Source: an uncultured Chloroflexia bacterium (GTDB taxonomy: Bacteria; Chloroflexota; Dehalococcoidia; GIF9; UBA5629). Taken from it: a stretch of 64,000 nt of DNA. Below are positions 11,151 to 25,328 of the stretch, piece by piece. Under the pieces are notes generated by a model. The model did not search any database and was not told the DNA's origin. It was given only the letters and a program-made list of their open reading frames with translations. Numbering within the stretch: the stretch's first letter is position 1; every line of letters begins with the position of its first letter. The DNA lies in assembly GCA_963705905.1 (NCBI GenBank), contig OY970123.1, positions 275,051 to 339,050 of the forward strand, read 5' to 3'. A program made the translations under genes and the position numbers.

Positions 11151-12593
11151 ATGGTAGGCATCAGGTCGTATGGGGCTCATATACCAAGATTTCGGTTGGA
11201 TCGCAATGTAATGCAATTGGCTCTTTTATTCCTGGGTTTTGCGCCGTTGAGGGGCGAAAAGGCGGTGGCCAATTGGGATGAGGACAGCATAACCATGGCA
11301 GTTGCGGCAGCAGTAGATTGCTTGAAAGACGAGGATAGCGACCGGGTTGACGGATTGTACTTTGCCAGCACATCTCAGACATATGCCTTAAGGCAAAACG
11401 CAGGCATTGCGGCTGCAGCTCTGGATCTTAAGACCAGTACCAGGACCGCAGATTTCACTGACTCGACCAAGTCAGGCACTGCTGCATTACTGGCTGCCGC
11501 CGACGCTATCTCTGCCGGATCGCTAAACAGTTGCCTGGTATCCGCAGCGGACTGCAGGGTCAGCAAGGTTGGCAGTAATGGCGATTATACTTATGGAGAC
11601 GGTGCAGCCGCATTTTTACTCGCTAAAGAAGATGTGATAGCAAATATTGAGGGAGCTTTCTCAACCACTCATGATTTTGTTGACCGCAGGCGCCTTGAGG
11701 GTGAACGCATGGAACATTTGTGGGAGGAGCGTTTTATCCGCGATGCCGGCTATATGAAATTTATTCCAGAGGCGGTTAAAGGGCTGGTCGATAAATACAA
11801 GTTAAATATCAAGGATTTTTCCAAGGTAATCTATGCATGTTCTTTCGCCGGCGCTCATTCCGCTCTGGCCAAGGTGATGGGGCTAGTGCCTGAGCAGGTG
11901 CAAGATCCGATGCTGAACAATGTGGGCGAAACAGGCGTGGCTCAGTCGCTGATGATGCTGGTAGCAGCCCTGGAAGATGCCAAACCCGGAGATAAGATCA
12001 TGGTTGTAAGCTTCGGGCAGGGATGTGATGCCTTCTACCTGACCGTTACAGATAATATAACTAAAATGAAAGGCAAGAAGGGCATTAAAGGCAACCTGGC
12101 AAATAAAGCACCATTGGGGAGCTATGAAAAGTATCTGGCTTTCCGCAAATTGATGCCTTCTGAAATTGGTATTAGAGGTGAGGAGACGCTCTATACCTCG
12201 TTTTCAATAGTCTCAAGGGATAGCCGGGAGATATATGGCATGGTTGGAACAAAGTGCAAGAAATGCGGCACTCCGGCCTGGCCTGCTCAGAGAATCTGTC
12301 CGAACCCCGACTGCGGTGCGGTCGACCAGATCGAACCATATAGATTTGCGGATAAGAAAGCCAACATATTTACGTACACCAGCGACTTTCTGGCTGCCAG
12401 CATTGATCCGCCTTCTTCCTACGGGTTCATTGATTTCGTAGGCGGTGGCAGGACCGGAGTAGATTTTACAGACTGTGACGCAAACAGCCTCAAAGTAGGC
12501 CTGCCGGTCGAGCTGAGTTTCAGGATAAAATTTACGGATGAGAAACGCGCGGCTGTGAACTATGGCTGGAAAGGGATCCCAATCATCACATAA
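11151..12593 (+). CDS. HMG-CoA-synthase-like domain fused to a C-terminal DUF35 (zinc ribbon + OB-fold) domain
   Basis: GIRSYGAHIPRFRL, DEDSITMAVAAA, GDGAAA, VGETG, SFGQG (HMGS fold); C-terminal CKKCG...ICPNPDC, ANIFTYT, VGLPVELSFR (DUF35). Confidence 0.85.
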   Translation: MVGIRSYGAHIPRFRLDRNVMQLALLFLGFAPLRGEKAVANWDEDSITMAVAAAVDCLKDEDSDRVDGLYFASTSQTYALRQNAGIAAAALDLKTSTRTADFTDSTKSGTAALLAAADAISAGSLNSCLVSAADCRVSKVGSNGDYTYGDGAAAFLLAKEDVIANIEGAFSTTHDFVDRRRLEGERMEHLWEERFIRDAGYMKFIPEAVKGLVDKYKLNIKDFSKVIYACSFAGAHSALAKVMGLVPEQVQDPMLNNVGETGVAQSLMMLVAALEDAKPGDKIMVVSFGQGCDAFYLTVTDNITKMKGKKGIKGNLANKAPLGSYEKYLAFRKLMPSEIGIRGEETLYTSFSIVSRDSREIYGMVGTKCKKCGTPAWPAQRICPNPDCGAVDQIEPYRFADKKANIFTYTSDFLAASIDPPSSYGFIDFVGGGRTGVDFTDCDANSLKVGLPVELSFRIKFTDEKRAAVNYGWKGIPIIT

Positions 12594-12622
12594 CCAAAGG
12601 GAAAAACAAGGAGGACATGTAA

Positions 12623-13816
12623 ATGGCCGAGGGAATTAAAGATAAAGTTGCCATAATCGGTATGGGTTGCACTAAATTTGGCGAGCGCTTTGACGCAAGT
12701 CCGCAAGATCTTATCGTGGAGGCGTTTGTTGAGTGCCTGGAAGATGCGGGCATGGAAAAGAAGGATATTCAAGCCGCATGGTGGGGTGTGCACATGCCTG
12801 ATATCAGTGTCGGACGGGGTGCCACCATATTAGGACACACTCTGAAGTTGCCTTTCATTCCCATAACACGTGTTGAAAATTTCTGTGCTACCGGGTCCGA
12901 AGCACTGCGCGGCGCAGTATATGCAGTTGCATCCGGGGCTTATGATATTTGCCTGGCGCTGGGGATGGAGAAGTTGAAAGACACAGGTTACGGCGGCCTG
13001 CCGGTAGCGGGTATGTTGGGTTATAAGTTACCTTTGGTCAATTTCAATTTGTCAGCGCCGGGCGGTTTTGCCATGCTGGCTACAAAATATTTTTCGCAAT
13101 ACAACCTTGATCCTCAGGAAGGCAAGATGATGCTCGCCCGGGTTTCAGCCAAGAGCCATAAAAACGGCGTCCTCTCTCCCAAGGCACATCTACGCAGGGA
13201 AATTACTGTGGAACAGATTGTTAATGCCCCGATAATAGCCTGGCCGCTCGGGCTTTTCGACTGCTGTGGAGTAAGCGACGGCGCGGCTGCAGCCATAGTT
13301 TGCAGGGCTGATATGGCCAAGAAATTCAGGCAGGATCCCATTTTCGTTAAATCCCTTCAGATCGCAGTTTCTTCCGGCGAAGAGATGCTTTACACCAAGT
13401 GGGACGGCTCGCATGTTGAACCTGCCTATCGCGCTGGCATAGCTGCATACAAGGAAGCAGGTATTAAGAACCCGCGTGAAGAAGTAAGCATGGCGGAAGT
13501 CCATGACTGTTTTTCCATCACCGAAGCGGTTACGATGGAAGACATGCAGTTCAGCCCGAGGGGCAGGGTGAAAGAAGATATTGAGTCGGGCAGATTTAAC
13601 CTGGACGGCGCTCAGCCTATTCAGCCCGACGGTGGTTTGAAATGTTTCGGACACCCCATAGGGGCCAGCGGACTAAGGATGATGTATGAGATGTACAAGC
13701 AATTGCAGGGTAAAGCCGATAAAAGACAGATAAAAGACCCCAAAATAGGGCTTACGCATAACATGGGTGGTTTTCCTTCCATGAACATAGTAAGCGTCTG
13801 CATCGTTGGAAAATAA
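12623..13816 (+). CDS. Thiolase, SCP2/archaeal type
   Basis: VENFCATG, DGAAA, AEVHDCF, GGLKCFGHPIGASG, THNMGG. Confidence 0.9.
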   Translation: MAEGIKDKVAIIGMGCTKFGERFDASPQDLIVEAFVECLEDAGMEKKDIQAAWWGVHMPDISVGRGATILGHTLKLPFIPITRVENFCATGSEALRGAVYAVASGAYDICLALGMEKLKDTGYGGLPVAGMLGYKLPLVNFNLSAPGGFAMLATKYFSQYNLDPQEGKMMLARVSAKSHKNGVLSPKAHLRREITVEQIVNAPIIAWPLGLFDCCGVSDGAAAAIVCRADMAKKFRQDPIFVKSLQIAVSSGEEMLYTKWDGSHVEPAYRAGIAAYKEAGIKNPREEVSMAEVHDCFSITEAVTMEDMQFSPRGRVKEDIESGRFNLDGAQPIQPDGGLKCFGHPIGASGLRMMYEMYKQLQGKADKRQIKDPKIGLTHNMGGFPSMNIVSVCIVGK

Positions 13817-13838
13817 GAATAGGGGAGGCGGTTTCACC

Positions 13839-14312
13839 ATGGCTGTATTTGTGGTTCCCGAAAGCTTGAAAAAAATGGTCGGGCAGACCGAGGAACCCAT
13901 TGTTTTCAAAGTCGAGGAGGGCGCCATACAAAGATATGCGCGGGCGGTAGGAGATACTAATCTATTATATAATGATGTCGAGCATGCCGCTAGAAGCAGG
14001 TGGGGGCGTTTGCTGGCGCCGCCGGCATTCGCTGGCTGGCCCGTAAAATCCGACGGTTTTGACATGATCAAATTCGTAGAAAAGCTGATCAAAGCGGGTG
14101 CTCCTGCGGGGCTGCTGGATGGTGGCGTAGACTATGAGTTTTTTTCGACCGTAGCCGCAGGCGATACTCTTATCGCGGTTACTAAGATCGAAAGTATTGA
14201 AGGTCGTGAAACAAAGCTGGGTCCCACAATGATAACTACGGTGGAAACCATGTTCACTAACCAAGGTGGGGGCAAGGCATTCGTCATGCGTAATATGTTC
14301 CTGAATTTCTAA
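13839..14312 (+). CDS. MaoC-like (hot-dog fold) dehydratase, N-terminal-type subunit
   Basis: VEEGAIQRYARAVGDTN.LY...APP motif; ATG at 13839 follows GGGGAGG. Confidence 0.8.
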   Translation: MAVFVVPESLKKMVGQTEEPIVFKVEEGAIQRYARAVGDTNLLYNDVEHAARSRWGRLLAPPAFAGWPVKSDGFDMIKFVEKLIKAGAPAGLLDGGVDYEFFSTVAAGDTLIAVTKIESIEGRETKLGPTMITTVETMFTNQGGGKAFVMRNMFLNF

Positions 14313-14339
14313 GAAGTCCGTCTTTTATGCGGGAGGAAT

Positions 14340-14807
14340 ATGGCAGAGCAGATATATTATGAGGATCTGGAAGTTGGGTATGAAATAACTCCCCTGAAAA
14401 AAGTGGCGACCACCAGGATGCTGGTGCAATGGGCCGGTGCTTCAGGGGACTTTAATCCTCTTCACTATGAAGAAGATTTCGCAAAAAACCTTGGAGTCGG
14501 CCATCCAATTGTTCACGGGGCGCTCAAGAGAGCGTGGCTCGTGAACCTGATGACCGACTGGATAGGTGAAGAGGGAAGATTGAAGAAGTTGTCCTGTCGT
14601 TACCGCGGTATGGACTATCCGCGAAAAATGAAGAATTTCGATGAACCGTTGGACGGCGAAACCTGGTGGTGCAAAGGCAAAGTAATCAGAAAATATGTAG
14701 AAGGTGGCGAGCTCCTGGCTGAGTGCGAGATCTGGGTTGAGAACGGAAAGGGAGATAAAACAACGCTGGGACATGCTCTAGCGGTTCTCCCTTCAAAATC
14801 TAAATAA
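14340..14807 (+). CDS. MaoC-family (R)-enoyl-CoA hydratase
   Basis: Hydratase-2 motif WAGASGDFNPLH...PIVHG. Confidence 0.85.
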   Translation: MAEQIYYEDLEVGYEITPLKKVATTRMLVQWAGASGDFNPLHYEEDFAKNLGVGHPIVHGALKRAWLVNLMTDWIGEEGRLKKLSCRYRGMDYPRKMKNFDEPLDGETWWCKGKVIRKYVEGGELLAECEIWVENGKGDKTTLGHALAVLPSKSK

Positions 14808-14932
14808 CAGTCCTTTTTCGAGCGAATTCATAGCTGTGGTTGATGCCGTCCATATTCGGCGGACATCTGCTTATGCACAATCAAGAGAATTTTAGCGGAT
14901 AATGCATTATAATAGGCCGTGGAGAAACTATT

Positions 14933-15637
14933 ATGTATAACATAATCTGGGATCTGATTCTGACGGTCATAATAAGCTATCTGCTGGGCTCCATTCCTTC
15001 GGCTTACCTGGTTGGCCGCGGGTTTAAAGGCGTAGATATAAGGCAGATCGGCAGCCACAATATGGGCGCCATGAATGCTTTCTATGCGATCGGGTTTTGG
15101 CCTGGCATGCTGGTGCTGGCGTGCGATGTCGGCAAAGGCATATTGTCACTGTATTTTTCGTATCTTCTGTCTGTATTTATCTTACCCGTTGACGCCAGCT
15201 ATGTTATCCCTATTGAAATGCTATCCGGTGTTGCTGTAATTGCAGGACACAACTTTACGGTTTTTCTCAAATTCAGGGGTGGCAAAGGTGGAGCAACGGC
15301 TATCGGGGTACTTGCTTTTTTGGTTGCTTGGGTAAATTGGTTCGAGTTGGGTCCAATAAAGTTGCCGATACCTTACGGATGGCTGATTTACCTGGCGTCA
15401 TTTCTTACGATAATGGCCATTACCCGCTGGCCGACGGCCGCGTACGGAGTTTCTTTTGCAGCTTTCCCGCTAATAGCGTGGTACGTTTATAAAGACCCGG
15501 GGTTGACGATATATTCTACATGCATCGCCCTGGTACCTATATTAATGTATATACCGCGCCTTAAACAGATCCTAGGCAAGTCGGATGGCAATGTTAAAAG
15601 GGCTCTATTCAGGAAAAATCTCAAAGACAGGATGTAA
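14933..15637 (+). CDS. plsY: Glycerol-3-phosphate acyltransferase PlsY family (second paralog)
   Basis: YLLGSIPSAY, DIRQIGSHNMGAMN, DVGKG, GHNFTVFLKFRGGKGGAT. Confidence 0.85.
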   Translation: MYNIIWDLILTVIISYLLGSIPSAYLVGRGFKGVDIRQIGSHNMGAMNAFYAIGFWPGMLVLACDVGKGILSLYFSYLLSVFILPVDASYVIPIEMLSGVAVIAGHNFTVFLKFRGGKGGATAIGVLAFLVAWVNWFELGPIKLPIPYGWLIYLASFLTIMAITRWPTAAYGVSFAAFPLIAWYVYKDPGLTIYSTCIALVPILMYIPRLKQILGKSDGNVKRALFRKNLKDRM

Positions 15638-15650
15638 AAGGCGAGTCAAG

Positions 15651-16634
15651 TTATTTAGCCCGGAAAGGATGGTCCTGGCGTTGGAAGTCGGGCAGGTAGC
15701 AGTCGGAGGAATCCATTTCCTGAAGCCATCCATTTTCCATACCCAGATTTTCTAACAGGGCAACAACCCGCCGGTATTCATCCAAAGAAATCCTGCGTGA
15801 AAGCAACGGTTCACCATCGGCCATATAACAGGGACGATATTGTGCCATAAGGCTTATCGTAATATTCCTGGAGATATGATCAGCCAGCCATCTCAATGAA
15901 TCCTCGCTTCCGGCTATCCCATTAGGCAGGATAAGGTGGCGGACTATCAAGCCCCGCTGAGCTATACCCGAGGAGTCGGTTACGAGGTTGCCCACCTGCC
16001 GGTACATTTCACTTATGGCCTGTCTGCTTTGCATTACATAATCCTTACCCTGAGAGAATTTTAGCGAGTACTCATCGGAGGAATACTTAATATCGGGTAA
16101 GTAAATGTCTACTACGCCGTCAAGCAATTTCAAGGTGCGTGTGGAATCGTAAGCATTGGTATTATAGACGATAGGCAATTTCAGTCCCATGCGGGCTGCA
16201 TATAATACCGCCTCCACGATTTGCGGCACGTAGTGTGTAGGAGAAACCAGGTTTATATTGTGGCAATGGAGTTGCTCCTGAAGGTAAATCATCGCGTTCG
16301 CCAATTCCTCTGAGTTAAGATAGCTGTCTTTGCAGTCCATCGCCTGGCTGATCTGGTAGTTCTGACAGTAACAGCAGCGCATGTTGCATCCGCTGAAAAA
16401 TATTGTGCCTGACCCCCTGGAACCCGAAAGAGCGGGTTCCTCACCATGATGGTCGCAGTAGCTGGATACACGAACCAGACGACCGGCCCGGCAAAATCCG
16501 TTATTGAGTTCCAGCCGGTTAACGTGACATTTACGCGGACACATCTCACATTCAGCTAATAACCCGTTAAGGGTAGCGACTCGTTTTTCCAGCTCTCCCG
16601 ATTTACATAACGAAAGGTAAGATGGTTCAAACAT
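15651..16634 (-). CDS. Radical SAM protein, PflX-like
   Basis: CEMCPRKC, HHGEEP, GSGTIFFSGCNMRCCYCQN, YLPDIKY, IVRHLILP. Confidence 0.88.
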   Translation of the reverse strand: MFEPSYLSLCKSGELEKRVATLNGLLAECEMCPRKCHVNRLELNNGFCRAGRLVRVSSYCDHHGEEPALSGSRGSGTIFFSGCNMRCCYCQNYQISQAMDCKDSYLNSEELANAMIYLQEQLHCHNINLVSPTHYVPQIVEAVLYAARMGLKLPIVYNTNAYDSTRTLKLLDGVVDIYLPDIKYSSDEYSLKFSQGKDYVMQSRQAISEMYRQVGNLVTDSSGIAQRGLIVRHLILPNGIAGSEDSLRWLADHISRNITISLMAQYRPCYMADGEPLLSRRISLDEYRRVVALLENLGMENGWLQEMDSSDCYLPDFQRQDHPFRAK

Positions 16635-16762
16635 TTGAGGCCTTTGTTACGAAATTAGTATATGGATTATAAAAGAGCCGGGTTAAAAACTTATTAACTG
16701 ATAGGGAAGAAGGTTCAAGCCGTTCAGATTTGCCGGGTGATACCAACGGGCACTGGCAACGC

Positions 16763-17308
16763 TTAAATAGTTGGTTGATCGGCATGGTTGTTATCCATGG
16801 CCTCAATCTCGCTACGGAAAAAGGCAATAACCTGCTCCGCGCTTGTCTTTGCCTGTGATTTTTCCGTCCCACGCCATGATATGCTTGCATCTCGAGCCCT
16901 TTGAAGCATTTCGTTCAAAGCTGTCAATTCATCGGCCGAGAAGCTTTTCTGGAATATTGCTCGTATTGAAGATTGCCAGGCGGGCAGAATTTTACCGATC
17001 AGTTGTTTTCCTTCGCTGGTCAGGGAAACCGCAACCTGCCTCCTATCACTCCTCGAGCGCCTGCGGCGTACCAATTTGCGCTCCTGGAGCTTATCGAGAA
17101 GCTGCACCATCGAGTGCGGCTCTCGCCTTGCGAGAGCGGATAGCTGTGTAGCTGTCATAAGTTTATCGGCAAAGAGAAGGACCCACAAAACAAAAGCCTG
17201 CGATAATGTAAGGTCTGCAGGCTTCATAATCGCTTCTTCCACCGCAGACTCATATTCTTCCCATGCCTGGACTAGATGATAGGGCGTAACAAACGAATCC
17301 AGCATCAT
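16763..17308 (-). CDS. MarR family transcriptional regulator
   Basis: LTLSQAFVL...TATQLS...LDKLQERKLVRRRRSRSDRRQVAVSLTSEG winged-helix signature; divergent from the kinase-RLP operon. Confidence 0.85.
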   Translation of the reverse strand: MMLDSFVTPYHLVQAWEEYESAVEEAIMKPADLTLSQAFVLWVLLFADKLMTATQLSALARREPHSMVQLLDKLQERKLVRRRRSRSDRRQVAVSLTSEGKQLIGKILPAWQSSIRAIFQKSFSADELTALNEMLQRARDASISWRGTEKSQAKTSAEQVIAFFRSEIEAMDNNHADQPTI

Positions 17309-17711
17309 TGTCTTTTTCGAACGACCCTTTCCCGCGTGGCGAATTATCCATTCTTACCGCTCATCATAATGGCATAGTTTACCATATTTCGAACAAATTT
17401 CTGCCTTCACATAAAAACGTATCATTATAGCAGATATATGTCAAAGCAGATAGAATCTGTATAGACATTATCTTCACTGATATGATATTATGGTTATGCC
17501 CACTGATAAAGCTTTGATTCGAGGGTTATTCACATAGTTAATTTATCTTGCCGGCCAAGGCAATGTTGAACAACTCAATGGTTGTACGCAGAAGGAAATC
17601 CGTTACTGTTCGAATGAACCAGTACGAGGCGTTGATTCCCAGTAGGATAATATGTATGATAGTGCATGTTCGAGCAGTAACAAAATTTTCTTTTAACGGG
17701 GGTGTGGCCGG

Positions 17712-19250
17712 ATGACACAGTACATAATAGCTCACGATGTTGGTACCAGCGGTAACAAGGCAGTTTTGGTTGATGTGCAGGGTGGGGTCCACGGAAAGTG
17801 TCTGGCGCCGTATGAAATCAAATATCCCAAGCCTGGATGGGCGGAGCAGGAGCCGGAAGGCTACTGGAGGGCGGTTACTCAGACCACCAAACAACTTCTT
17901 TCCGATACGGGCGTGTCGGCCTCTGATGTCGTTTGCATTGCTTACTCGACCCAGATGCTGGGCATCATTCCTATGGATGAAAAAACGGGCCCACTTAGCG
18001 ATGCCATTATATGGCTCGACTGTCGTGCTCCCGAGGAAGCCAGCTGGGTTATGAATAAATTTCTCGGACCGACGGTTTTTTCTGTTATTGCAGGGGCTAT
18101 GATTAATGGGAAAGATGGCATACCCAAGCTGGTATGGATGAAAAAAAACCAGCCTGAGATATATAAAAGGATGAAATGTTTTCTGGATGTTGACGGTTAC
18201 CTGATATACCGCAGCACTGGCAGGATGGTTATGGATTGGAGTAACGCATCGGCCTTCGGGCTGGACCTAAAAAAGAAAGTCTGGATGGATGCTATCTTTA
18301 AATATGTAGGGATCGATCCGGGTAAGCTGCCGCCCCTGGCCCGTTCCATAGACAAGGTGGGTGGCTTGACCAGGGAAGCGGCTCAACAGCTTGGCCTGAT
18401 GGAGGGTACTCCGGTAATGGGCGGATCCGGCGATGTCCCATCGGCCGCGGTAGGTTCCGGCGCAGTTGGAGAAGGTGAGGGTCATATCAGCATGGGGACA
18501 TCAGCCTGGGTTGGAGTCGTGACCAAGACGACGCCAACTGGTAAAAACGGCATAGCCGCCATACAATCGGCAGACCCTGAAAAGGCTTTGCTTTTAGCGC
18601 AAATGGAGCTGGCGGGCGGCTGTCTGAAATGGCTTGGCGACCAGGTGTGCAAAATTGAAAAAGCGGATCCGTCAATAACCAATATTTTCGGCTTCATGGA
18701 TGATAAGGTCCTCCAGGTACCCGCAGGATCGGACTATCTTATATTTATGCCCTGGATGTACGGGGAAAGGTCTCCTGTAGCTGATAGCTATATACGCTCC
18801 GGCTATCTTAACCTGACACCTGAACATACCCGTGAACACTTGCTGCGGGCTGTTTATGAGGGTGTGGCCTATAACCTGAGATGGATTATAGAAAGGCTTG
18901 AAAAAGAGTACCATTTCCCCTTGCCTTCGCTTAGACTGATCGGCGGTGGAGCTCTGGGTCAACCCTGGATGCAAATACTGGCCGACGTAACCGGCAAGCG
19001 TATCGAGACCGTAAAAAATCCTCAGGAGGCCGGAGCCGTAGGGGTCGCCATGGCGTCGGCGGTTGGACTGGGGATATATAAGGACTTTGAGTCGTTGAAA
19101 CAGGTAGTAAGTGTGGCTCATACCTATGATCCACAGGAAAAAAATAGAAGTGTCTACGATACACTCTTCAGTTCTTATAAGGACCTGTACGGCTATCTGC
19201 GAAAATTTTACACCAAGCTAAATAAGCAGAGGTGTGAAGTTAATGTGTAA
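17712..19250 (+). CDS. FGGY-family carbohydrate kinase (xylulokinase-like)
   Basis: HDVGTSGNKAVL, PGWAEQEP, IIWLDCRA, GD..SAAVGSG, GERSP, RAVYEGV, IGGGA...WMQILADV. Confidence 0.9.
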   Translation: MTQYIIAHDVGTSGNKAVLVDVQGGVHGKCLAPYEIKYPKPGWAEQEPEGYWRAVTQTTKQLLSDTGVSASDVVCIAYSTQMLGIIPMDEKTGPLSDAIIWLDCRAPEEASWVMNKFLGPTVFSVIAGAMINGKDGIPKLVWMKKNQPEIYKRMKCFLDVDGYLIYRSTGRMVMDWSNASAFGLDLKKKVWMDAIFKYVGIDPGKLPPLARSIDKVGGLTREAAQQLGLMEGTPVMGGSGDVPSAAVGSGAVGEGEGHISMGTSAWVGVVTKTTPTGKNGIAAIQSADPEKALLLAQMELAGGCLKWLGDQVCKIEKADPSITNIFGFMDDKVLQVPAGSDYLIFMPWMYGERSPVADSYIRSGYLNLTPEHTREHLLRAVYEGVAYNLRWIIERLEKEYHFPLPSLRLIGGGALGQPWMQILADVTGKRIETVKNPQEAGAVGVAMASAVGLGIYKDFESLKQVVSVAHTYDPQEKNRSVYDTLFSSYKDLYGYLRKFYTKLNKQRCEVNV

Positions 19251-19266
19251 TTAAGGAGGTATCCTC

Positions 19267-20571
19267 ATGAAAGAAGATGAGTTATTAAGTCAACCGATCG
19301 CTCTGCCCGATGGGATTGACTACGATGAGTACATAATAGGTACTTATACAGTCACATACCCGGCTATCTTCCCCATGCCCAAGCTGGCGCCTCTACTTGC
19401 AGTTGAGCAGAGTACTGGAACATGGGTCGCCGTACCCGGCGAGACACCCGAAGTAAGGCGGAATCATATCGCCAAGGTAATAGGTGTTTATGAGTTGCCT
19501 GACTATGAGTTCTCCGTGCCCGGCGGCTTGCAGGAAAGGAACTGGATGATACAGATCGCCTTCCCTGAAGTCAATATAGGATCCCAGATTCCCATGATGC
19601 TGACTGCCGTTGTGGGCAACATCTCCATGGCGGGACAGATAAAACTGGTAGACATAAGATTTCCTAAGAAATATGTGGATGGCTTTAAGGGTCCAAAGTT
19701 CGGTATCGAAGGCATAAGGAAGCTGCTGGGCGTGAAAAAGAGGCCTTTACTGAACAACATGGTCAAACCCTGCACCGGTTATCCCCTGGAAGTGGGTGCA
19801 GAGTTGTTTAAGCTGGCGGCCCTGGGGGGTTGCGACATAGTTAAAGACGATGAACTGATCGCTGATGCATCTTTCAATTCGGTGAAAGGCCGGGTTAAGC
19901 GCTATATGGAGATAGAGAAGCAAGTCTTTGAGGAGACGGGAGAGCATACGCTTTATACCGTAAATATATCCGACTCGGTGCCCAAAATATTTAAGAACGC
20001 CAAGCGGGCAGTAGAGTTGGGTGTAAACGGCATAATGATAAATTACATTGCTGTGGGGCTGCCTGTTTTGCAGGCACTTGCAGAAGATCCCGAGATCAAT
20101 GTACCGATCCTTGCGCATATGGACGTAGCCGGTGCTCTTTATATGTCACCATTCCATGGTATGAGTTCTCACCTCGTTCTCGGCAAATTGCCCAGACTGG
20201 CCGGTGCAGATATAGTCGTTATACCCGCACCCTATGGCAAAGCTCCTGTCATCACGGAGAAATTCGATGCCATGGCCAGAAATCTCACTTATCCGTTTTA
20301 TAACATCAAACCCACCTGGCCAATGGCATCAGGTGGGATAACCCCTTCAATGGTGCCGAAGGTCATGCAGGAGCTGGGCAACGATATCGTCATCGGTTCC
20401 GGCGGCGGAATCCACGCCCATCCCGGTGGACCCGTAGCCGGCGGCAAGGCTTTCAGACAATCTATCGAGGCGACAATGAAGGGCATATCGCTTGAAGAGT
20501 ATGCCAAGACTCACAAGGAGTTGGCCGCTTCAATCCGGGCATGGACTGACCCCTTTAAGAAAGGCGTATAA
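19267..20571 (+). CDS. RuBisCO-like protein (form IV)
   Basis: EQSTGTW, GPKFGIEG, KPCTG, GGCDIVKDDE (carbamylation motif), SGG and GGGIHAHP. Lacks the form I-III KPKLG Lys and HRA motif. Confidence 0.92.
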   Translation: MKEDELLSQPIALPDGIDYDEYIIGTYTVTYPAIFPMPKLAPLLAVEQSTGTWVAVPGETPEVRRNHIAKVIGVYELPDYEFSVPGGLQERNWMIQIAFPEVNIGSQIPMMLTAVVGNISMAGQIKLVDIRFPKKYVDGFKGPKFGIEGIRKLLGVKKRPLLNNMVKPCTGYPLEVGAELFKLAALGGCDIVKDDELIADASFNSVKGRVKRYMEIEKQVFEETGEHTLYTVNISDSVPKIFKNAKRAVELGVNGIMINYIAVGLPVLQALAEDPEINVPILAHMDVAGALYMSPFHGMSSHLVLGKLPRLAGADIVVIPAPYGKAPVITEKFDAMARNLTYPFYNIKPTWPMASGGITPSMVPKVMQELGNDIVIGSGGGIHAHPGGPVAGGKAFRQSIEATMKGISLEEYAKTHKELAASIRAWTDPFKKGV

Positions 20572-20603
20572 ATTAAACGTAAATCCTAGTCACAAGTTTC
20601 CAG

Positions 20604-20634
20604 AATCAGGCCCCTGCCAGGGGCCTGATTTTTT
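20604..20634 (+). terminator. Intrinsic terminator after the RLP
   Basis: AATCAGGCCCCT-GCC-AGGGGCCTGATT followed by TTTT. Confidence 0.85.
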
Positions 20635-20738
20635 GTTTTACATACATATATATATTATTAATGTAGAAGCGAAAGCCCGTAGCACCCGTCAAACATATGG
20701 GCTGTGTCCGGGCATTACTTTGTTGAGGAGGAAACGGG

Positions 20739-22103
20739 TTGAAGGAATACGACTTTATTGTGGTTGGCTCTGGCTGCGGACTGATAATTGTTGATGAGGC
20801 TGTTGAGCATGACTTAAAAGTGGCGCTGGTGGATACGGGGCCGCTGGGTGGTACCTGCCTCAACGTAGGTTGTATACCGTCCAAGATGCTCACTACCGTT
20901 GCTGACCGCGTAGTTGATATACAGGAGGCAAGGAAACTGGGCGTCAGAGGCAGGGTTACCTCCGTCGATTTCCAATCGGTCATGAGACGAATGCGAAAGG
21001 TAGTAAGCGACGGGAGAGAGCATGTCAGAAAGACTATAGCCAGACAGAAAAAACTCGAATTTTATGAGGGGAAAGGATGCTTTGTAGACGACATGACCAT
21101 GGAAGTAAACGGGGAGAAGATAAAAGGCAAAAGGATATTTTTAGCCTCCGGCTCGAGGACACTGATACCTCCCATCAGAGGGCTTGAAACGGTTGATTAT
21201 CTCACTAATGAGTCGGTTCTAAATCTTAAAAATCAGCCGGAGAGCCTGGTGATTATAGGCGGCGGTTACATAGCGGTGGAGTTGGGACATTTCCTTGCTG
21301 CTATGGGCACCAGGGTCACAATATTGGAGATGGCGGACAGGCTGATTCTTTCGGAGGAGCCGGAAATTTCCGAATTACTGAAAGAGAGGTTGGGCCGGCG
21401 CCTAGAGGTACGTACAGGCGAACTGGTGCAGGAAGTCAGACGTGGGGTGTCCGGGCAGGGTGCAATAGTGCTGACCCAATTTAAAGCTACTGGGGAACAG
21501 AGAGAGTATTCCGCGGAAAGGATTCTGGTTGCGGTCGGCCGCAGGTCTAACGCTGATACTCTGCGGGTGGAAAAAACCGGCGTACAATTGGATCAACGCG
21601 GCTTCATCAAGGTTAATGGCTATATGCAAACGTCGCACCGTCATATTTTCGCAGTCGGAGATGCCAACGGCCAGCAGATGTTCACCCATATCGCCAATAG
21701 AGAAGCCGTTCTGGCAGCCGACCACGTTCTGCACGGCACACGGAAAAAGATGGACTATGGAGCCGCTCCTCATGCCGTTTACTCATATCCTCAGATAGCG
21801 TCTGTCGGCATGACTGAGGAACAGGCACGCATGGAACACAAAATAAGGGTGGGTAAAACAAAATACAGGAGCGTGGCGTACGGTGAGGCCTTGATAGAAA
21901 AGAAAGGCTTTGCCAAAGCTGTAATTGAGGAGAAAACCGACAAGATACTTGGATTCCATATTATTGGGCCGTACGCGCCCATTTTAATCCAGGAAGTCAT
22001 CAATGCCATGCAGTCAAAAGGGAATGTATATGAAATATTTGAAGGCATGCATATACACCCGGCTATGACAGAGCTTATACCTACTACGCTCGGCAATACC
22101 TGA
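20739..22103 (+). CDS. Class I pyridine nucleotide-disulfide oxidoreductase (dihydrolipoyl dehydrogenase / mycothione reductase-like)
   Basis: VVGSG, GGTCLNVGCIPSK, IIGGGYIAVE, FAVGD, HPAMTE. Confidence 0.88.
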   Translation: MKEYDFIVVGSGCGLIIVDEAVEHDLKVALVDTGPLGGTCLNVGCIPSKMLTTVADRVVDIQEARKLGVRGRVTSVDFQSVMRRMRKVVSDGREHVRKTIARQKKLEFYEGKGCFVDDMTMEVNGEKIKGKRIFLASGSRTLIPPIRGLETVDYLTNESVLNLKNQPESLVIIGGGYIAVELGHFLAAMGTRVTILEMADRLILSEEPEISELLKERLGRRLEVRTGELVQEVRRGVSGQGAIVLTQFKATGEQREYSAERILVAVGRRSNADTLRVEKTGVQLDQRGFIKVNGYMQTSHRHIFAVGDANGQQMFTHIANREAVLAADHVLHGTRKKMDYGAAPHAVYSYPQIASVGMTEEQARMEHKIRVGKTKYRSVAYGEALIEKKGFAKAVIEEKTDKILGFHIIGPYAPILIQEVINAMQSKGNVYEIFEGMHIHPAMTELIPTTLGNT

Positions 22104-22124
22104 TAATAGGTAATTCTAGCGACG

Positions 22125-22730
22125 TCATTTGTCCGTAACTTGAGCCTGCTTCAATTCCTTCAATAAGAAGGCAAATATAAGGATACCAAGAGTGTCCGCC
22201 AGGATCATAGGTACGGCAATTATACTGACGAGCTTTAATGCATCCGCGAAAGGGCGGGCGAGAAGAAGCAGCAGGCCCATATCGGCAGCTTCCATAAGGA
22301 AGGCGAAAAGTGCCGGTTTCCAGATACCGATATTGCCCTTCCAGAGCAGGAAAAGAAGGCCGCCGGCCAGGCCGCTGACTGTGGTGCCGATTGCGCAGGG
22401 TACCGCGGTAAAACCACCCATGAAATAGCGGTGCACACCACCGAGCAATCCCGCTCCAAGCCCTACCCATGGGCCTCCCAGCAGGCCGGCAATCATGGGA
22501 CCCAGGTTTCTGATATTGGCAATGGCCCCCGACGTTTGGATGCCCGTATAAGTCCCGTAAACGGCAAAAAGGCCGAATATAACCGCCAGTATCACCTGAT
22601 CGAGGATGCTAAGTTTTTTTGCCAGCATACGATTGAAAAACTCGATGTGGAAAAGCAAAAAGAATACCACCAGCAGGAGACTGGCCCTTTCAATGAGGGT
22701 CCACAAGATGCCGAAAACGGATAAGTCCAT
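22125..22730 (-). CDS. Stand-alone LytS/YhcK-type 5TM receptor domain protein
   Basis: IFGLFAVYGTYTG...AIANIRN...AGLLGGPWVGLGAGLLGGVHRYFMGGFT..PC signature; no kinase domain follows. Confidence 0.85.
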   Translation of the reverse strand: MDLSVFGILWTLIERASLLLVVFFLLFHIEFFNRMLAKKLSILDQVILAVIFGLFAVYGTYTGIQTSGAIANIRNLGPMIAGLLGGPWVGLGAGLLGGVHRYFMGGFTAVPCAIGTTVSGLAGGLLFLLWKGNIGIWKPALFAFLMEAADMGLLLLLARPFADALKLVSIIAVPMILADTLGILIFAFLLKELKQAQVTDK

Positions 22731-23299
22731 GATTACTCCTTTCCCTTGGCGGGCATTATAAAAGACCTGTGTTAATTTTTAACGGCACATATTCTACACC
22801 CTCGTCGGCGGAGCTTTCCATGGCCTGACCATTTACATAAGATTAAAAGTTGGCGGAAGGCGATTTACAAAACTGCGCAAAAACTCTAAATAGCCGATGA
22901 TGTTTTGTTGACTTGAGGCAAGTCCTGAGGTTTAACCGCCTGCCCGGCTAAAACGGTATCAAGATTTAATTGAGACTAAACTTGCCTATTTATTAAAGTA
23001 AATCAACTATACGAATTAATTTGCTACGCATTTTAGGGTACGCTTTGGGTTGCACATTTCTGTAAAAAAATCACGCTCAAAACCGATGTATTGAACATCG
23101 GCGTATGGTTTACTTTAATCAAGGTGAGATAAACCTAGATGCAGAAATTCCTGCTTGCGCAGTAAAGATATCAAAAAGCTGAATCATTCAAAATGACTGT
23201 GCCGGGTCCCGGCCGGTTGCCTGGCGGAGGTGGGGCTCCCGCACCTGGTATTGATCATTCTAGCGCGTCGAAACCTTGAATATTTAAATCAGGAGTACT

Positions 23300-23713
23300 T
23301 TGATGAAAGCGTCACATGCTGCCGTATTCTACGCGATCTTTTTTGTCGTGATCCTGGTTGTGACAGGTGGGTTTGTATTTAAAAGAACCACGCAGGATGT
23401 CTCACCGTTATGGCTAACTCCCCAGGAAGCCAAGAACCTGATCGACAAGACATCCGACGTGGTTGTAATAGATCTGTCACGCCATTTCTTCAATGACGGA
23501 CATCTTCCCGGCGCACTTAACTATCCGCGCTGCGCTCTACCCTATGTGATCTCAAATCTCGATAAAAATAAGACATATATTGTCTACTGCCATTGGACCG
23601 GGGCTCCGCTTGCCAGTGCTTACGATTTGAAAGAAGCCGGATTTAACAATGTCTATGCACTGGAAGGTAATTATGGCGCCTGGGTAGACGCCGGTTACCC
23701 GGTCGTGAATTAA
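23300..23713 (+). CDS. Rhodanese-like domain protein with an N-terminal TM anchor
   Basis: VVVID...GHLPGALN...IVYCH...LKEAGFNNVYALEGNYGAW. Confidence 0.85.
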   Translation: MMKASHAAVFYAIFFVVILVVTGGFVFKRTTQDVSPLWLTPQEAKNLIDKTSDVVVIDLSRHFFNDGHLPGALNYPRCALPYVISNLDKNKTYIVYCHWTGAPLASAYDLKEAGFNNVYALEGNYGAWVDAGYPVVN

Positions 23714-23714
23714 T

Positions 23715-24089
23715 CTATTTAATGAATTTCCCTCCTAGTGTAAAAGGCGTTGCGTATCCGGCACGCGGGATCGATGCCTTAGGAGAATGAGAAGTGTCAG
23801 AATATTCATACGGTTTTGAGACCAGGGTATCCGAATATGGCTTATCAGCCTCTTTGGCGGTCTCCGAAGCGCTTTGCTTGGAGTGGCCGAGCATGATCAA
23901 TAGTCCCGTAACATATAGGCCCAGGAAAGTACCAAGGAACGGAAATATGAACTTCAAGAAATGGATATTTGCAGCGGCGTCGATCTGGTATCCGATCCAG
24001 AAAGCACCGCCCATGCAACCCGGCATGATGATGAACAGCGACAGCGGGAATTTAATGAGGAATTCCCACAAACTGGTATTAACGCCCAT
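23715..24089 (-). CDS. Small membrane protein, AtpZ/AtpI-like
   Basis: Start re-called to ATG 24089 (MGVNTSLWEF); pattern GGAFWIGYQID...FPFLGTFLGL resembles AtpZ/AtpI. Confidence 0.5.
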   Translation of the reverse strand: MGVNTSLWEFLIKFPLSLFIIMPGCMGGAFWIGYQIDAAANIHFLKFIFPFLGTFLGLYVTGLLIMLGHSKQSASETAKEADKPYSDTLVSKPYEYSDTSHSPKASIPRAGYATPFTLGGKFIK

Positions 24090-24097
24090 TACCCTTT

Positions 24098-24211
24098 TTA
24101 ACATGTTCCCAGCACCCAGGTCAGCATTGAGAAGGCCACTATGATAGCTGTAAGAATCCCAACGGCAATAAAAGTGGACACTAATCCGATAGTCCAACCT
24201 TCAGTTTCCAT
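24098..24211 (-). CDS. Unannotated 37-aa single-TM peptide (METEGWTIGLVSTFIAVGILTAIIVAFSMLTWVLGTC)
   Basis: Strong RBS AGGAGG a few nt upstream of ATG 24211; clean hydrophobic helix; stops 8 nt before the next ATG. Confidence 0.6.
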   Translation of the reverse strand: METEGWTIGLVSTFIAVGILTAIIVAFSMLTWVLGTC

Positions 24212-24414
24212 GAATAACCTCCTATCTATTATTTCCGCGGTTCCCGGGCCTACCGTCTTCAATCGCCGGTCCGGGGCCGCCGGATTGCTTAGCCTTTATG
24301 CCAGGATGATGTACACAATAAGGTTTGAATACAATACTATAATCAATTCCTGTAACTATATTATGTTAAAGCGCTTGGTAAACCTTCTTCCAAGACAACT
24401 TGCCGTTGACAGTT

Positions 24415-24627
24415 CTACGATCTGGCGGGAATTCGATCCTGTAAATATTTCAGGCAAATATCCGGGTAGTTGGTGGCGAGGCCCTGCAGAAACCGTCGCC
24501 CCGGCTTTTTATCACCGGTTAAGACCAGACACAGCATCGATGGGGATATGCCCAACTTGGCTGCCAACTTGGCATTGGTCAGCTTCTCCTGTCGCATTAT
24601 ATTGTAAAGCTCGGACTCCAATTTCAT
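24415..24627 (-). CDS. Small XRE/Cro-like HTH regulator (70 aa)
   Basis: MRQEKLTNAKLAAKLGISPSMLCLVLTGDKKPG HTH_XRE pattern; start re-called to ATG 24627. Confidence 0.8.
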   Translation of the reverse strand: MKLESELYNIMRQEKLTNAKLAAKLGISPSMLCLVLTGDKKPGRRFLQGLATNYPDICLKYLQDRIPARS

Positions 24628-24628
24628 G

Positions 24629-24715
24629 TTTACTATATTAAATAAAAAGTTTACTAAAATCAATATCCAAATGGGTAATTTTGACATGATTTTTAAAAAG
24701 ATTTACCATGGTAAA
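24629..24715. promoter_or_regulatory. Divergent promoter region with three related operator-like sites
   Basis: Perfect palindrome TTTACCATGGTAAA (24702-24715); related TTTACTATATTAAA (24629-24642) and TTTACTAAAATCAA (24650-24663); TTGACA-17-TACCAT on + (24681-24709); TTGATT-17-TAATAT on -. Confidence 0.6.
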
Positions 24716-24746
24716 GCGACAGCTTGCCAATAGGCGGTATAAATAG

Positions 24747-25328
24747 ATGTTAAGAGATTTTGTTAAGGATACGCGGTTCAAAAGGGGCTTGTCTCAAGCA
24801 GAGCTGGCCAAGTTGGCCGACCTGTCGCCTTCTTTTATTTGCCGTATTGAAAAAGGTGATTACAAGTCGGTTACCCTGAGTTCCCTGCAAAAACTCTCAC
24901 GCGCCCTGAAGGTTAGCATAAGCGACCTCAGCAACCTCGTTTTAGATAAGAATCCGAAGGAAGATTTGCTAAAGAAAACGCCATATGAGATAATAAGTGA
25001 GCTTTCGCTTTCTTTACCGGCGATCGTGCCGGTTTATGCGGAAATAAATAGCAGGCAGATAATTGAATACGTTTTCGTTCCACGGGAGTTGGCAGCATAT
25101 GGGGGCAAGGAGATGAAGCTGATAGGGATTAAGGCTGCGGAGGTGGAGTACGGCAATGTGGTTCACAAGGGAGACGTAATAATTTGTGGTAAGGACGTGC
25201 CGGCCTCACCAGGTGACCTTTGCCTGAAGATGGAAGGTGAGGAAATGGTCATTGCTCCCTATAAAAAGAAAGACGACTATTTTGCGGTCATACTCCAGGT
25301 CGTCAGAGTCGTTAAAAAGCTCAACTGA
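24747..25328 (+). CDS. XRE-family cI/LexA-like repressor with a degenerate S24 C-terminal domain
   Basis: RGLSQAELAKLADLSPSFICRIEKG HTH; C-terminal IVPVYAEI...EYVFVP...KGDVIIC...PGDLC resembles the S24 fold. Confidence 0.8.
   Translation: MLRDFVKDTRFKRGLSQAELAKLADLSPSFICRIEKGDYKSVTLSSLQKLSRALKVSISDLSNLVLDKNPKEDLLKKTPYEIISELSLSLPAIVPVYAEINSRQIIEYVFVPRELAAYGGKEMKLIGIKAAEVEYGNVVHKGDVIICGKDVPASPGDLCLKMEGEEMVIAPYKKKDDYFAVILQVVRVVKKLN

Follow-up and report, generated by a model that had tools for sequence, protein, structure and literature searches.

The window analysed here is a 64,000-nucleotide stretch from an uncultured Chloroflexia bacterium (assembly GCA_963705905.1, contig OY970123.1, positions 275,051 to 339,050 of the forward strand). 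We focus on a pair of adjacent genes at 17712-20571 that encode an FGGY-family kinase and a RuBisCO-like protein (RLP), with a regulator gene divergent from them. The locus contains the following features.

16763-17308, minus strand: MarR-family regulator (Pfam MarR_2, PF12802, 38.3 bits; MarR, PF01047, 28.9 bits)
17309-17711, no strand assigned: divergent control region of 403 nt, the MarR-to-kinase spacer, with a promoter-like site and conserved blocks
17712-19250, plus strand: FGGY-family kinase of 512 aa, xylulokinase-like (Pfam FGGY_N 191.1 and FGGY_C 105.2 bits)
19251-19266, plus strand: intercistronic gap of 16 nt that contains the ribosome-binding site AAGGAGG (from the sequence itself)
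19267-20571, plus strand: RLP of 434 aa, kinase-linked clade (Pfam, NCBIfam, signature and tree)
20602-20642, plus strand: intrinsic-terminator-like hairpin and T run (14-pair stem with 7 G-C pairs, 3-nt loop)

The kinase and RLP genes form a real two-gene operon. The kinase stop codon (TAA) ends at 19250 and the RLP start codon (ATG) begins at 19267. Open reading frames, Pfam domains and the AAGGAGG in the gap confirm what an earlier sequence-only reading of this DNA had described, a two-gene operon with a 16-nt gap and a divergent MarR gene. The terminator that it placed after the RLP was also found. The hairpin (20602-20632) begins 31 nt past the RLP stop codon, is followed by a T run and is the sole terminator-like site on either strand within 16500-20800. 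A count of one is not above chance (3.8 +/- 2.4 in shuffles), so the weight of the terminator comes from its position. In the spacer, a promoter-like TTGATT-17-TATGAT occurs at 17632-17660 on the plus strand (9/12 matches). All five aligned close loci, among them L007 without a MarR gene, share a conserved block that runs from about 17630 up to the kinase ATG, and a second block (about 17380-17520) is common only to the MarR-bearing loci. Either block may be a putative operator. An inverted-repeat search of the spacer gave only a weak 10-nt palindrome (17679-17692), and we claim no MarR operator from it.

The RLP falls within the RuBisCO large-subunit superfamily (PF00016, 153.7 bits, cut-off 30.1; PF02788, 36.9 bits, cut-off 20.7). 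It has 99 solved-structure matches at E <= 0.001, and the 60 listed are all RuBisCOs or RLPs. The best are structures of MtnW, the methionine-salvage enolase (2zvi, 288 bits; 2oek, 287 bits), followed by the C. tepidum-type RLP (208 bits) and form III RuBisCO (about 196-220 bits). The top two NCBIfam models are likewise for MtnW, but both scores are under cut-off (NF007095, 375.8 against 409; TIGR03332, 336.1 against 513.6). Scores were also below cut-off for form III RuBisCO (TIGR03326, 254.1 against 497.45; NF003252, 238.3 against 438) and for OiaX (NF042437, 189.4 against 700). Many close relatives are automatically named '2,3-diketo-5-methylthiopentyl-1-phosphate enolase' in one source. 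The best models and the best structures would favour extending this name to the RLP; active site, phylogeny and gene neighbourhood, described below, do not justify it.

We mapped 21 RuBisCO active-site positions by alignment and checked the columns on 11 form III enzymes taken from loci that also carry genes for adenosine monophosphate (AMP) phosphorylase and ribose-1,5-bisphosphate isomerase. Positions are given in spinach numbering, with the residue roles (carbamate/Mg2+, P1 phosphate, second phosphate) of RuBisCO. The form III reference signature is ETWN-IKK-KDE-HRHH-K[M/L]-SGG-GG (11 rows) and that of the RLP is ETWN-MKC-KDE-HMAV-KA-SGG-GG. Of 61 clade rows, 58 have exactly this RLP signature, including five from Asgard archaea at an overall identity of 52-58%. 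The exceptions are L069 (G) and L047 (S), which differ at H298 only, and L038, which is truncated by the end of its contig and carries A in place of S379. Compared with form III, the RLP keeps 15 of the 21 positions and differs by T173M (I in form III), K177C, R295M, H298A, H327V and L335A (M/L in form III).

The carbamate/Mg2+ site (K201, D203, E204) is kept as VKDDE at RLP residues 192-196 and is invariant in all 61 clade rows. K175, H294, E60, N123 and K334 are also kept, as is the P1 phosphate site (T65, W66, G381, G403, G404). Apolar or small residues (C, M, A, V, M and A among these positions) stand in for the second phosphate site (R295, H298, H327) and for K177, T173 and L335. The translation contains VKDDE, VKPCTG and AHMDVAG, in agreement with the retained KDDE, KPCTG in place of KPKLG and HMD in place of HRA reported earlier. 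With the second phosphate site lost, the RLP is predicted to take a monophosphate and therefore cannot be a carboxylase of ribulose-1,5-bisphosphate (RuBP). Thus the earlier statement 'not CO2 fixation' holds for RuBP carboxylation, given the replacement of K177, R295, H298 and H327, but does not extend to carboxylation or decarboxylation chemistry, as E60, N123 and K334 are kept. The active site is in fact the closest to a real RuBisCO of any RLP group examined here. The fold family and the retention of most catalytic residues could suggest a bona fide form III RuBisCO. We regard this as barely conceivable, because K177C, R295M, H298A and H327V occur in every member (apart from the two variants at H298), the form III score is 254.1 against a cut-off of 497.45, and neighbouring genes for AMP phosphorylase and ribose-1,5-bisphosphate isomerase are confined to loci with RLPs of 34-37% identity.

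A search of 1.84 billion representatives with the RLP returned 2096 relatives (E <= 0.001). For labels, 65 full-length representatives were scored by NCBIfam; named sequences of the R. rubrum RLP, the C. tepidum RLP, OiaX and OiaT are absent from the tree. Both MtnW cut-offs are reached by P0153 and P0156, and one of them by P0150, P0172 and P0175. P0220 is above the cut-off for form III, and none of the 65 reaches that for OiaX. FastTree was run on 102 of 109 rows (seven were dropped for gaps at signature columns) and a quick IQ-TREE tree was built from 87 rows after removal of 25 representatives with odd signatures or long branches. The two trees agree. The 13-row MtnW group is an exact bipartition with a Shimodaira-Hasegawa-like approximate likelihood ratio test (SH-aLRT) support of 100, and the RLP lies outside it. 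Ten bacterial kinase-linked RLPs form a bipartition (SH-aLRT 95), and these ten with the five Asgard rows, P0137 and P0124 form another (SH-aLRT 97). P0213, an RLP-cupin fusion, served as a proxy for the DeepYkr type, since its cupin part matches R. rubrum Rru_A2000 (80 bits) and its RLP part best matches 3qfw (235 bits). It branches elsewhere, on a long branch with unsure placement, and has R at the K334 position. The RLP of the window matches 3qfw at 106 bits only.

We place the RLP in an uncharacterised kinase-linked clade, and the MtnW name is not justified for its relatives on scores, tree or signature. All 13 MtnW-clade representatives have G, K and S/T/N in place of E60, N123 and K334, and these and the other signature differences recur in every member of the RLP clade. 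No methionine-salvage gene was detected by Pfam or NCBIfam among the 12 open reading frames tested (11151-25328), and mtnK, mtnB, mtnX and mtnD are not neighbours, consistent with the earlier remark that no such genes adjoin the pair. We therefore consider it highly improbable that the RLP is MtnW. The suggestion that this is an unassigned RLP is supported, as the protein is below the MtnW, OiaX and form III cut-offs, outside the MtnW clade and far from the DeepYkr proxy. Among the family members surveyed we also observed natural RuBisCO-superfamily fusions, one of an IF-2B-family isomerase with a form III-type RuBisCO (P0260) and one of a TIR domain with an RLP (P0271).

The kinase is an FGGY kinase by its domains, although it is not assignable to xylulokinase. 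It scores below every NCBIfam equivalog cut-off, including both XylB models (TIGR01312, 325.3 against 380.25; NF011601, 202 against 912), and reaches 242.2 on the gluconokinase model and 194 on the autoinducer-2 (AI-2) kinase model. Its best solved structures are the xylulokinases 2itm (177.5 bits) and 3hz6 (174.2 bits).

We profiled the gene neighbourhoods of RLP relatives in a collection with one genome per species. In this collection, 567 stretches encode RLP relatives; 80 loci were kept, of which 67 have an RLP of at least 50% identity and define the clade. Loci were considered testable if enough flank was present or if a kinase was seen, and a distance of 3.5 kb was used. A kinase gene is located within 3.5 kb of the RLP gene in 49 of 56 testable loci from several phyla, and in 39 loci it is directly upstream, on the same strand and within 250 nt. 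Two further loci (L038 and L051) have a more distant FGGY gene downstream that was not counted. The taxa represented include Dehalococcoidia, Anaerolineae, Caldisericota, Actinomycetota, Acidimicrobiales and Planctomycetota. Conservation of the kinase linkage had been set as a test of the original assignment, and these counts bear it out, as does a second kinase-RLP pair in the same genome.

The gene neighbourhoods also revealed a third partner. Of 55 testable loci, 36 encode an amine-handling enzyme at most 3.5 kb from the RLP. In 23 of these it is saccharopine-dehydrogenase-like (Sacchrp_dh_NADP/_C, with a weak carboxynorspermidine synthase match of 67 bits), matching solved saccharopine and carboxyspermidine dehydrogenases at 75-98 bits. 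The other 13 are HemL-like class-III aminotransferases, which are nearest to glutamate-1-semialdehyde aminomutase (292 bits, cut-off 398) and match solved structures at up to 225 bits. All of these partners belong to families that act on amino acids. At L009 and L043, the RLP gene is found with a TetR gene and no kinase nearby, and an HpcH/HpaI-type aldolase gene and a Glu/Leu/Phe/Val-type amino-acid dehydrogenase gene are upstream; the latter is a third kind of amine/oxo enzyme beside an RLP.

The regulator, on the other hand, varies. The MarR of the window is a genuine domain match (cut-offs of 27 for PF12802 and 24.6 for PF01047) that reaches no NCBIfam equivalog. Only three of the 67 clade loci (L004, L005 and L006) have an orthologue of it (78-80% identity) upstream of the kinase. 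A TetR gene is located between kinase and RLP in 10 loci and an ArsR-type regulator occurs in seven, compared with the three that have the MarR orthologue. MarR is lineage-specific and outside the conserved module. Of the compact MarR/kinase/RLP unit proposed from the sequence, the kinase-RLP pair therefore stands and the membership of MarR does not. Nor is the unit complete as a pair, because an amine-handling enzyme is added in the 36 loci above and at the paralogous locus described below.

Metagenomes were scanned with an alignment of sister-clade representatives and 80 loci were kept. Forty-eight of them have a full RLP open reading frame with the signature of the clade, about ten of these being of the Asgard type. 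Within the retrieved flanks, an amine enzyme is present in 25 of the 48, and kinase and amine enzyme together in 21. The gene orders are kinase-aminotransferase-RLP (5 loci), aminotransferase-kinase-RLP (2), dehydrogenase-kinase-RLP (1) and an RLP with an inverted kinase-dehydrogenase pair (2). This shuffling of gene order argues for a functional association over mere synteny.

Asgard archaea showed a different arrangement of the same genes. In all five Asgard genomes that were reached via the loci, the RLP gene has no adjacent kinase. FGGY homologues (34-39% identity) are present in all five. They are directly beside a saccharopine-dehydrogenase-like gene (45-54% identity) at three loci, a HemL-like aminotransferase gene (44-48% identity) at two loci and another class-III aminotransferase gene at three loci. 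In G001 and G002 the kinase is on the same contig as the RLP, about 9-10 kb away. These arrangements make the kinase the hub of the module: its partner is the RLP in bacteria and the amine enzyme in Asgard archaea.

We also considered the neighbours of the Asgard RLP genes as partners (ThiS, an acyl-CoA ligase-like protein, aldehyde:ferredoxin oxidoreductase and a 368-aa protein) and rejected them as convergent or of unclear relevance. At Asgard-type loci (L054 492-1595, L137 4627-5733 and nine further metagenome loci), the gene for the 368-aa protein immediately precedes the RLP gene and has the same orientation. The protein has no Pfam or solved-structure match, two copies share 75% identity, and genes for Arf-family GTPases are nearby. 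The Heimdall-type genome G001 additionally encodes a saccharopine-pathway pair (G001:C27, L109 13653-16354), consisting of an alanine-dehydrogenase/PNT-type gene and a full saccharopine-dehydrogenase gene, about 4 kb from an aminotransferase-kinase pair.

The host genome is one 2.46-Mb contig, in which the second kinase-RLP pair is located at 2197418-2200272 (RLP 87% and kinase 73% identity to the first pair). An MFS transporter gene precedes this pair and a HemL-like aminotransferase gene follows it (G000:C1:2196114-2201892; locus L003 6115-11896). The transporter has only a weak best match, to the D-galactonate transporter family (87.5 bits), one of the anion-type sugar-acid transporters. 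A dual-specificity phosphatase-like gene is situated just upstream of this four-gene cluster. In the tree, the RLP at 19267-20571 groups with L010, a dehydrogenase-type locus, and its paralogue with L019, an aminotransferase/TetR-type locus. A solitary second copy of the aminotransferase gene (96% identity) is present at 1341113-1342567, and there are two further MFS paralogues. The solitary aminotransferase may serve the pair at 17712-20571.

Adjacent mtnA (418.8 bits, cut-off 279) and mtnP (312.9 bits, cut-off 274.85) genes were detected at 688623-690382, about 393 kb from the RLP gene, and one class II aldolase gene at 1833716-1834219. A set resembling the dihydroxyacetone phosphate (DHAP) shunt for methylthioadenosine therefore exists without the RLPs. 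This bears on the possibility that the pair salvages by-products of S-adenosylmethionine (SAM), with the RLP acting on 5-methylthio- or 5-deoxy-ribulose-1-phosphate like the DeepYkr RLP of R. rubrum. An apolar pocket where the second phosphate would be is compatible with this role, mtnA and mtnP would make such substrates, and a radical SAM gene neighbours the module in 17 loci. However, mtnA and mtnP are far from the pair and need no FGGY kinase, and the class II aldolase could complete the shunt. With the cupin part of P0213 as query, no Rru_A2000-like cupin was found in the host genome (best E 6.9). The distance from 3qfw, the separate branching of P0213 and the restriction of the radical SAM neighbour to close relatives also count against salvage, which would leave the amine enzyme and the importers unexplained. 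We consider it quite unlikely.

RLPs next to the clade provide a further context. The nearest sister clade with an informative context (metagenome loci L135, L174, L176, L178, L179) has the signature ETWN-MKS-KDE-HLG.-KF-GGA-GG and is 47-48% identical to the RLP of the window and 32-33% identical to the OiaX-like P0207. In four of its five loci a beta-keto-acid cleavage enzyme gene is directly upstream, and in four of five a DUF1537-type kinase gene (SBD_N + NBD_C) is directly downstream. Genes for a xylose-isomerase-like barrel, Dak1/Dak2, RpiB and TctA/TctB are found around these RLPs, and other sister clades adjoin PEP-hydrolase-like, UPF0261 and SorC-type genes. These contexts indicate that the catabolism of oxo-acid or sugar-acid phosphates, coupled to a kinase, is a common thread in this part of the family. 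Because the sister clade has apolar residues in an acid-sugar and beta-keto-acid context, such residues are no proof of an apolar substrate.

We consider it very probable that the kinase, the RLP and the amine enzyme are a real functional module acting on a monophosphate by enolisation. This three-enzyme module is probably catabolic; the variable repressors (MarR, TetR, ArsR) and the transporters are hints in this direction. For the outcome of the RLP reaction we tentatively prefer decarboxylation of a phosphorylated beta-keto acid, at less than even odds. E60, N123 and K334 serve the CO2-derived carboxylate in RuBisCO. Decarboxylation of a beta-keto acid derived from a hydroxy-amino acid is favoured because these residues are invariant across more than 40% sequence divergence and are lost in the labelled proton-transfer clade, because the amine partners all belong to families that handle amino acids, and because both the importers and the context of the sister clade suggest carboxylates.

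In the scheme that we infer, as to substrate class, step order, direction and decarboxylation alike, a hydroxylated amino acid would be imported and its amino carbon converted to an oxo group by the class-III aminotransferase or, in other lineages, the saccharopine-dehydrogenase-like enzyme. The FGGY kinase would phosphorylate the terminal hydroxyl, yielding the monophosphate substrate of the RLP. The RLP would hold the single phosphate in the P1 site, form an enediolate with the carbamylated lysine of KDDE and Mg2+, and release CO2 from the beta-keto acid in an OiaX-like step, the reverse of the RuBisCO carboxylation step. The resulting 2-keto-1-phosphate could enter central metabolism, for example via a class II aldolase. 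In this scheme the amine enzyme would supply (or consume) the oxo group, and MarR would repress the operon until a pathway metabolite binds. As an example only, and not as a claim, 4-hydroxythreonine could be converted to 2-oxo-3-hydroxy-4-phosphobutanoate and then to DHAP and CO2.

Several observations weigh against decarboxylation or against the module as drawn. MtnW, which is closest to the RLP in sequence (2zvi, 288 bits), catalyses a proton transfer, and the RLP scores only 189 bits on the OiaX model (cut-off 700). Apolar residues (M, C, M, A, V, A) take the place of the second phosphate site and could also accommodate a substrate with an apolar tail and no carboxylate, as in MtnW, and the roles suggested here for E60, N123 and K334 are based on a correlation among a small number of labelled groups. 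The kinase is most similar to xylulokinases, which act on neutral ketoses, with gluconokinase second. No amine enzyme gene is beside the pair at 17712-20571, and a homologue search found no saccharopine-dehydrogenase-like homologue in the host genome. Seven of the 56 testable loci have no nearby kinase, three in bacteria (L009, L043, L045) and four in Asgard archaea (L050, L053, L054, L069). In the metagenome sample, which is more peripheral, only 27 of 48 loci have an FGGY gene in the retrieved flanks, many of the contigs being short.

The same module could alternatively contain an RLP that performs proton transfer, as a tautomerase or a 1,2- or 1,3-isomerase in the manner of MtnW and the R. 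rubrum RLP. Its substrate would be a 2-keto-1-phosphate that carries an apolar tail and no carboxylate, and the amine enzyme and the kinase could produce it from a 2-amino-1-ol or an amino-polyol. We hold this reading to be possible though doubtful, and nearly as likely as decarboxylation. The six apolar or small residues in place of the second phosphate site, the retained P1 site and the tight pairing of kinase and amine enzyme are consistent with it. A kept P1 site is expected for a phosphate next to the carbonyl carbon. The closest characterised relatives are MtnW enzymes, and both characterised functions on the MtnW side of the family are proton transfers according to the accessible parts of PMC5893883 and PMC6302742. 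On the other side, E60, N123 and K334 are invariant in the clade, lost in 13 of 13 MtnW-clade representatives and, for K334, replaced by R in P0213. Asn occupies the N123 position in the RLP and in every clade row, whereas 13 of 13 MtnW-clade representatives have Lys there, which we take to be the catalytic base of the MtnW enolase. The sister clade is equally apolar and yet is found in an acid-sugar and beta-keto-acid context.

The retention of RuBisCO positions raises a further possibility, that the RLP is a true carboxylase adding CO2 to the enediolate of a monophosphorylated ketone or ketose, followed by cleavage of the adduct, with a substrate other than RuBP. The 15 of 21 positions kept (K175, K201, D203, E204, H294, K334, E60 and N123 among them), invariant from Chloroflexota to Asgard archaea, speak for it, and carboxylation is a common anaerobic way of activating ketones. 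We consider it unlikely, since K177 and H327 are replaced in every member and the context, with importers and repressors, looks catabolic. No carboxylase is included among the RLP activities described in the accessible parts of PMC5893883 and PMC6302742, namely tautomerase, isomerase, decarboxylase or transcarboxylase/hydrolase. In its broadest form, the clade would consist of RuBisCO-type carboxylases or freely reversible (de)carboxylases acting on the enediolate of a monophosphorylated substrate that originates from a nitrogen-containing hydroxy compound. This is improbable, but if true it would represent living near-RuBisCO chemistry on a non-RuBP substrate, close to the ancestor-type enzyme of CO2-fixing RuBisCO.

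Other genes surround the operon in the window. A flavoprotein disulfide reductase gene (20739-22103) was considered as a member of the unit and rejected, as it is beyond the terminator and adjacent in only four loci. The radical SAM gene (15651-16634, minus strand) has no close curated family and adjoins the kinase or MarR gene in 17 related loci. We rejected it as a functional 5'-deoxyadenosine source because it accompanies the kinase in close relatives only. A stand-alone 5TMR-LYT membrane domain protein (22125-22730, minus strand) and a rhodanese-domain protein (23300-23713, plus strand) are each module companions in 11 related loci. At 11151-13816, an HMG-CoA-synthase-like protein fused to a ChsH2/DUF35-type zinc ribbon and OB fold (480 aa) is followed by a thiolase-like protein, an archaeal-style pair in a Dehalococcoidia genome. 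Elsewhere in the host genome, a 1146-aa open reading frame (G000:C1:1344033-1347473; L084 10034-13474) joins a molybdopterin oxidoreductase, with Fe4S4, molybdopterin and dinucleotide-binding domains, to a class-V aminotransferase/cysteine-desulfurase-like domain. Two tandem genes at G000:C1:2418152-2420747 (L086 10153-12748) each encode an alpha/beta-hydrolase fused to a TIR domain.

Few RLP reactions are known (tautomerase, 1,3-isomerase, decarboxylase or transcarboxylase), and the accessible part of PMC7325909 describes the range of RLP functions as unknown. The clade presented here is large, common in anaerobes of peat, wetland and sediment, and spans anaerobic Chloroflexota, Actinomycetota, Caldisericota and Asgard archaea. 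Its routine mislabelling as MtnW or RuBisCO distorts metabolic reconstructions of Dehalococcoidia and Asgard archaea. The partner genes point to an undescribed link of amine metabolism with sugar-phosphate or oxo-acid metabolism. The module is small, needs no special cofactors and may bear on the residues that decide between proton transfer and CO2 chemistry in the superfamily. The full-text literature searched contained no published link of an RLP with an FGGY kinase, with a saccharopine-dehydrogenase-like enzyme or with this module, although subscription papers and supplements may bear on its novelty. The present analysis adds that the two loci of this genome are paralogous and differ in their accessory genes, that the near-RuBisCO signature is invariant, that kinase and amine enzyme are paired in Asgard genomes and that a sister clade is linked to a DUF1537-type kinase.

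Among known systems, MtnW/YkrW (PDB 2zvi, 2oek) is the closest characterised relative by sequence, at 288 bits. It shares with the RLP a monophosphate substrate, the KDDE carbamate/Mg2+ site and the apolar replacement of the second phosphate site. It differs at E60, N123 and K334 (G, K and S, T or N) and in its partners, which are mtnK, mtnA, mtnB, mtnX and mtnD and not an FGGY kinase and an amine enzyme. Form III RuBisCO of the archaeal AMP pathway shares the 15 of 21 positions, but its AMP phosphorylase and isomerase neighbours are missing beside the RLP. The DeepYkr RLPs (R. rubrum, R. palustris RLP1) are oxygen-independent 5-methylthioribulose-1-phosphate 1,3-isomerases whose partner is a cupin, the 1-methylthioxylulose-5-phosphate methylsulfurylase, as far as the accessible part of PMC5893883 describes them; the feature shared with the RLP would be action on a ketose-1-phosphate with an apolar tail. 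The difference is based on a proxy: 106 bits to 3qfw, no cupin in the host genome and P0213 branching elsewhere.

The OiaX and OiaT route provides an analogy for the preferred decarboxylation. In D-apionate catabolism, OiaX is a 3-oxo-isoapionate-4-phosphate decarboxylase and OiaT a transcarboxylase/hydrolase, according to the accessible part of PMC6302742, which cites Carter et al. 2018. The RLP of the window may similarly be a kinase-coupled RLP in a catabolic route that acts on the monophosphate product of its kinase. The three OiaX-like representatives keep E60, N123 and K334, as the RLP does, but also R295 and H327, which the RLP has lost, and the OiaX-like P0207 is about 36% identical to it. 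The kinase of that route, OiaK, is presumably of the DUF1537 type, as opposed to FGGY here, and we know of no amine enzyme partner in the apionate routes. The DUF1537-linked sister clade, itself uncharacterised, has the ETWN-MK core, K334, an apolar second phosphate site and direct coupling to a small-molecule kinase in common with the RLP, but differs from it by S in place of C at K177, a kinase of another family and the lack of an amine enzyme.

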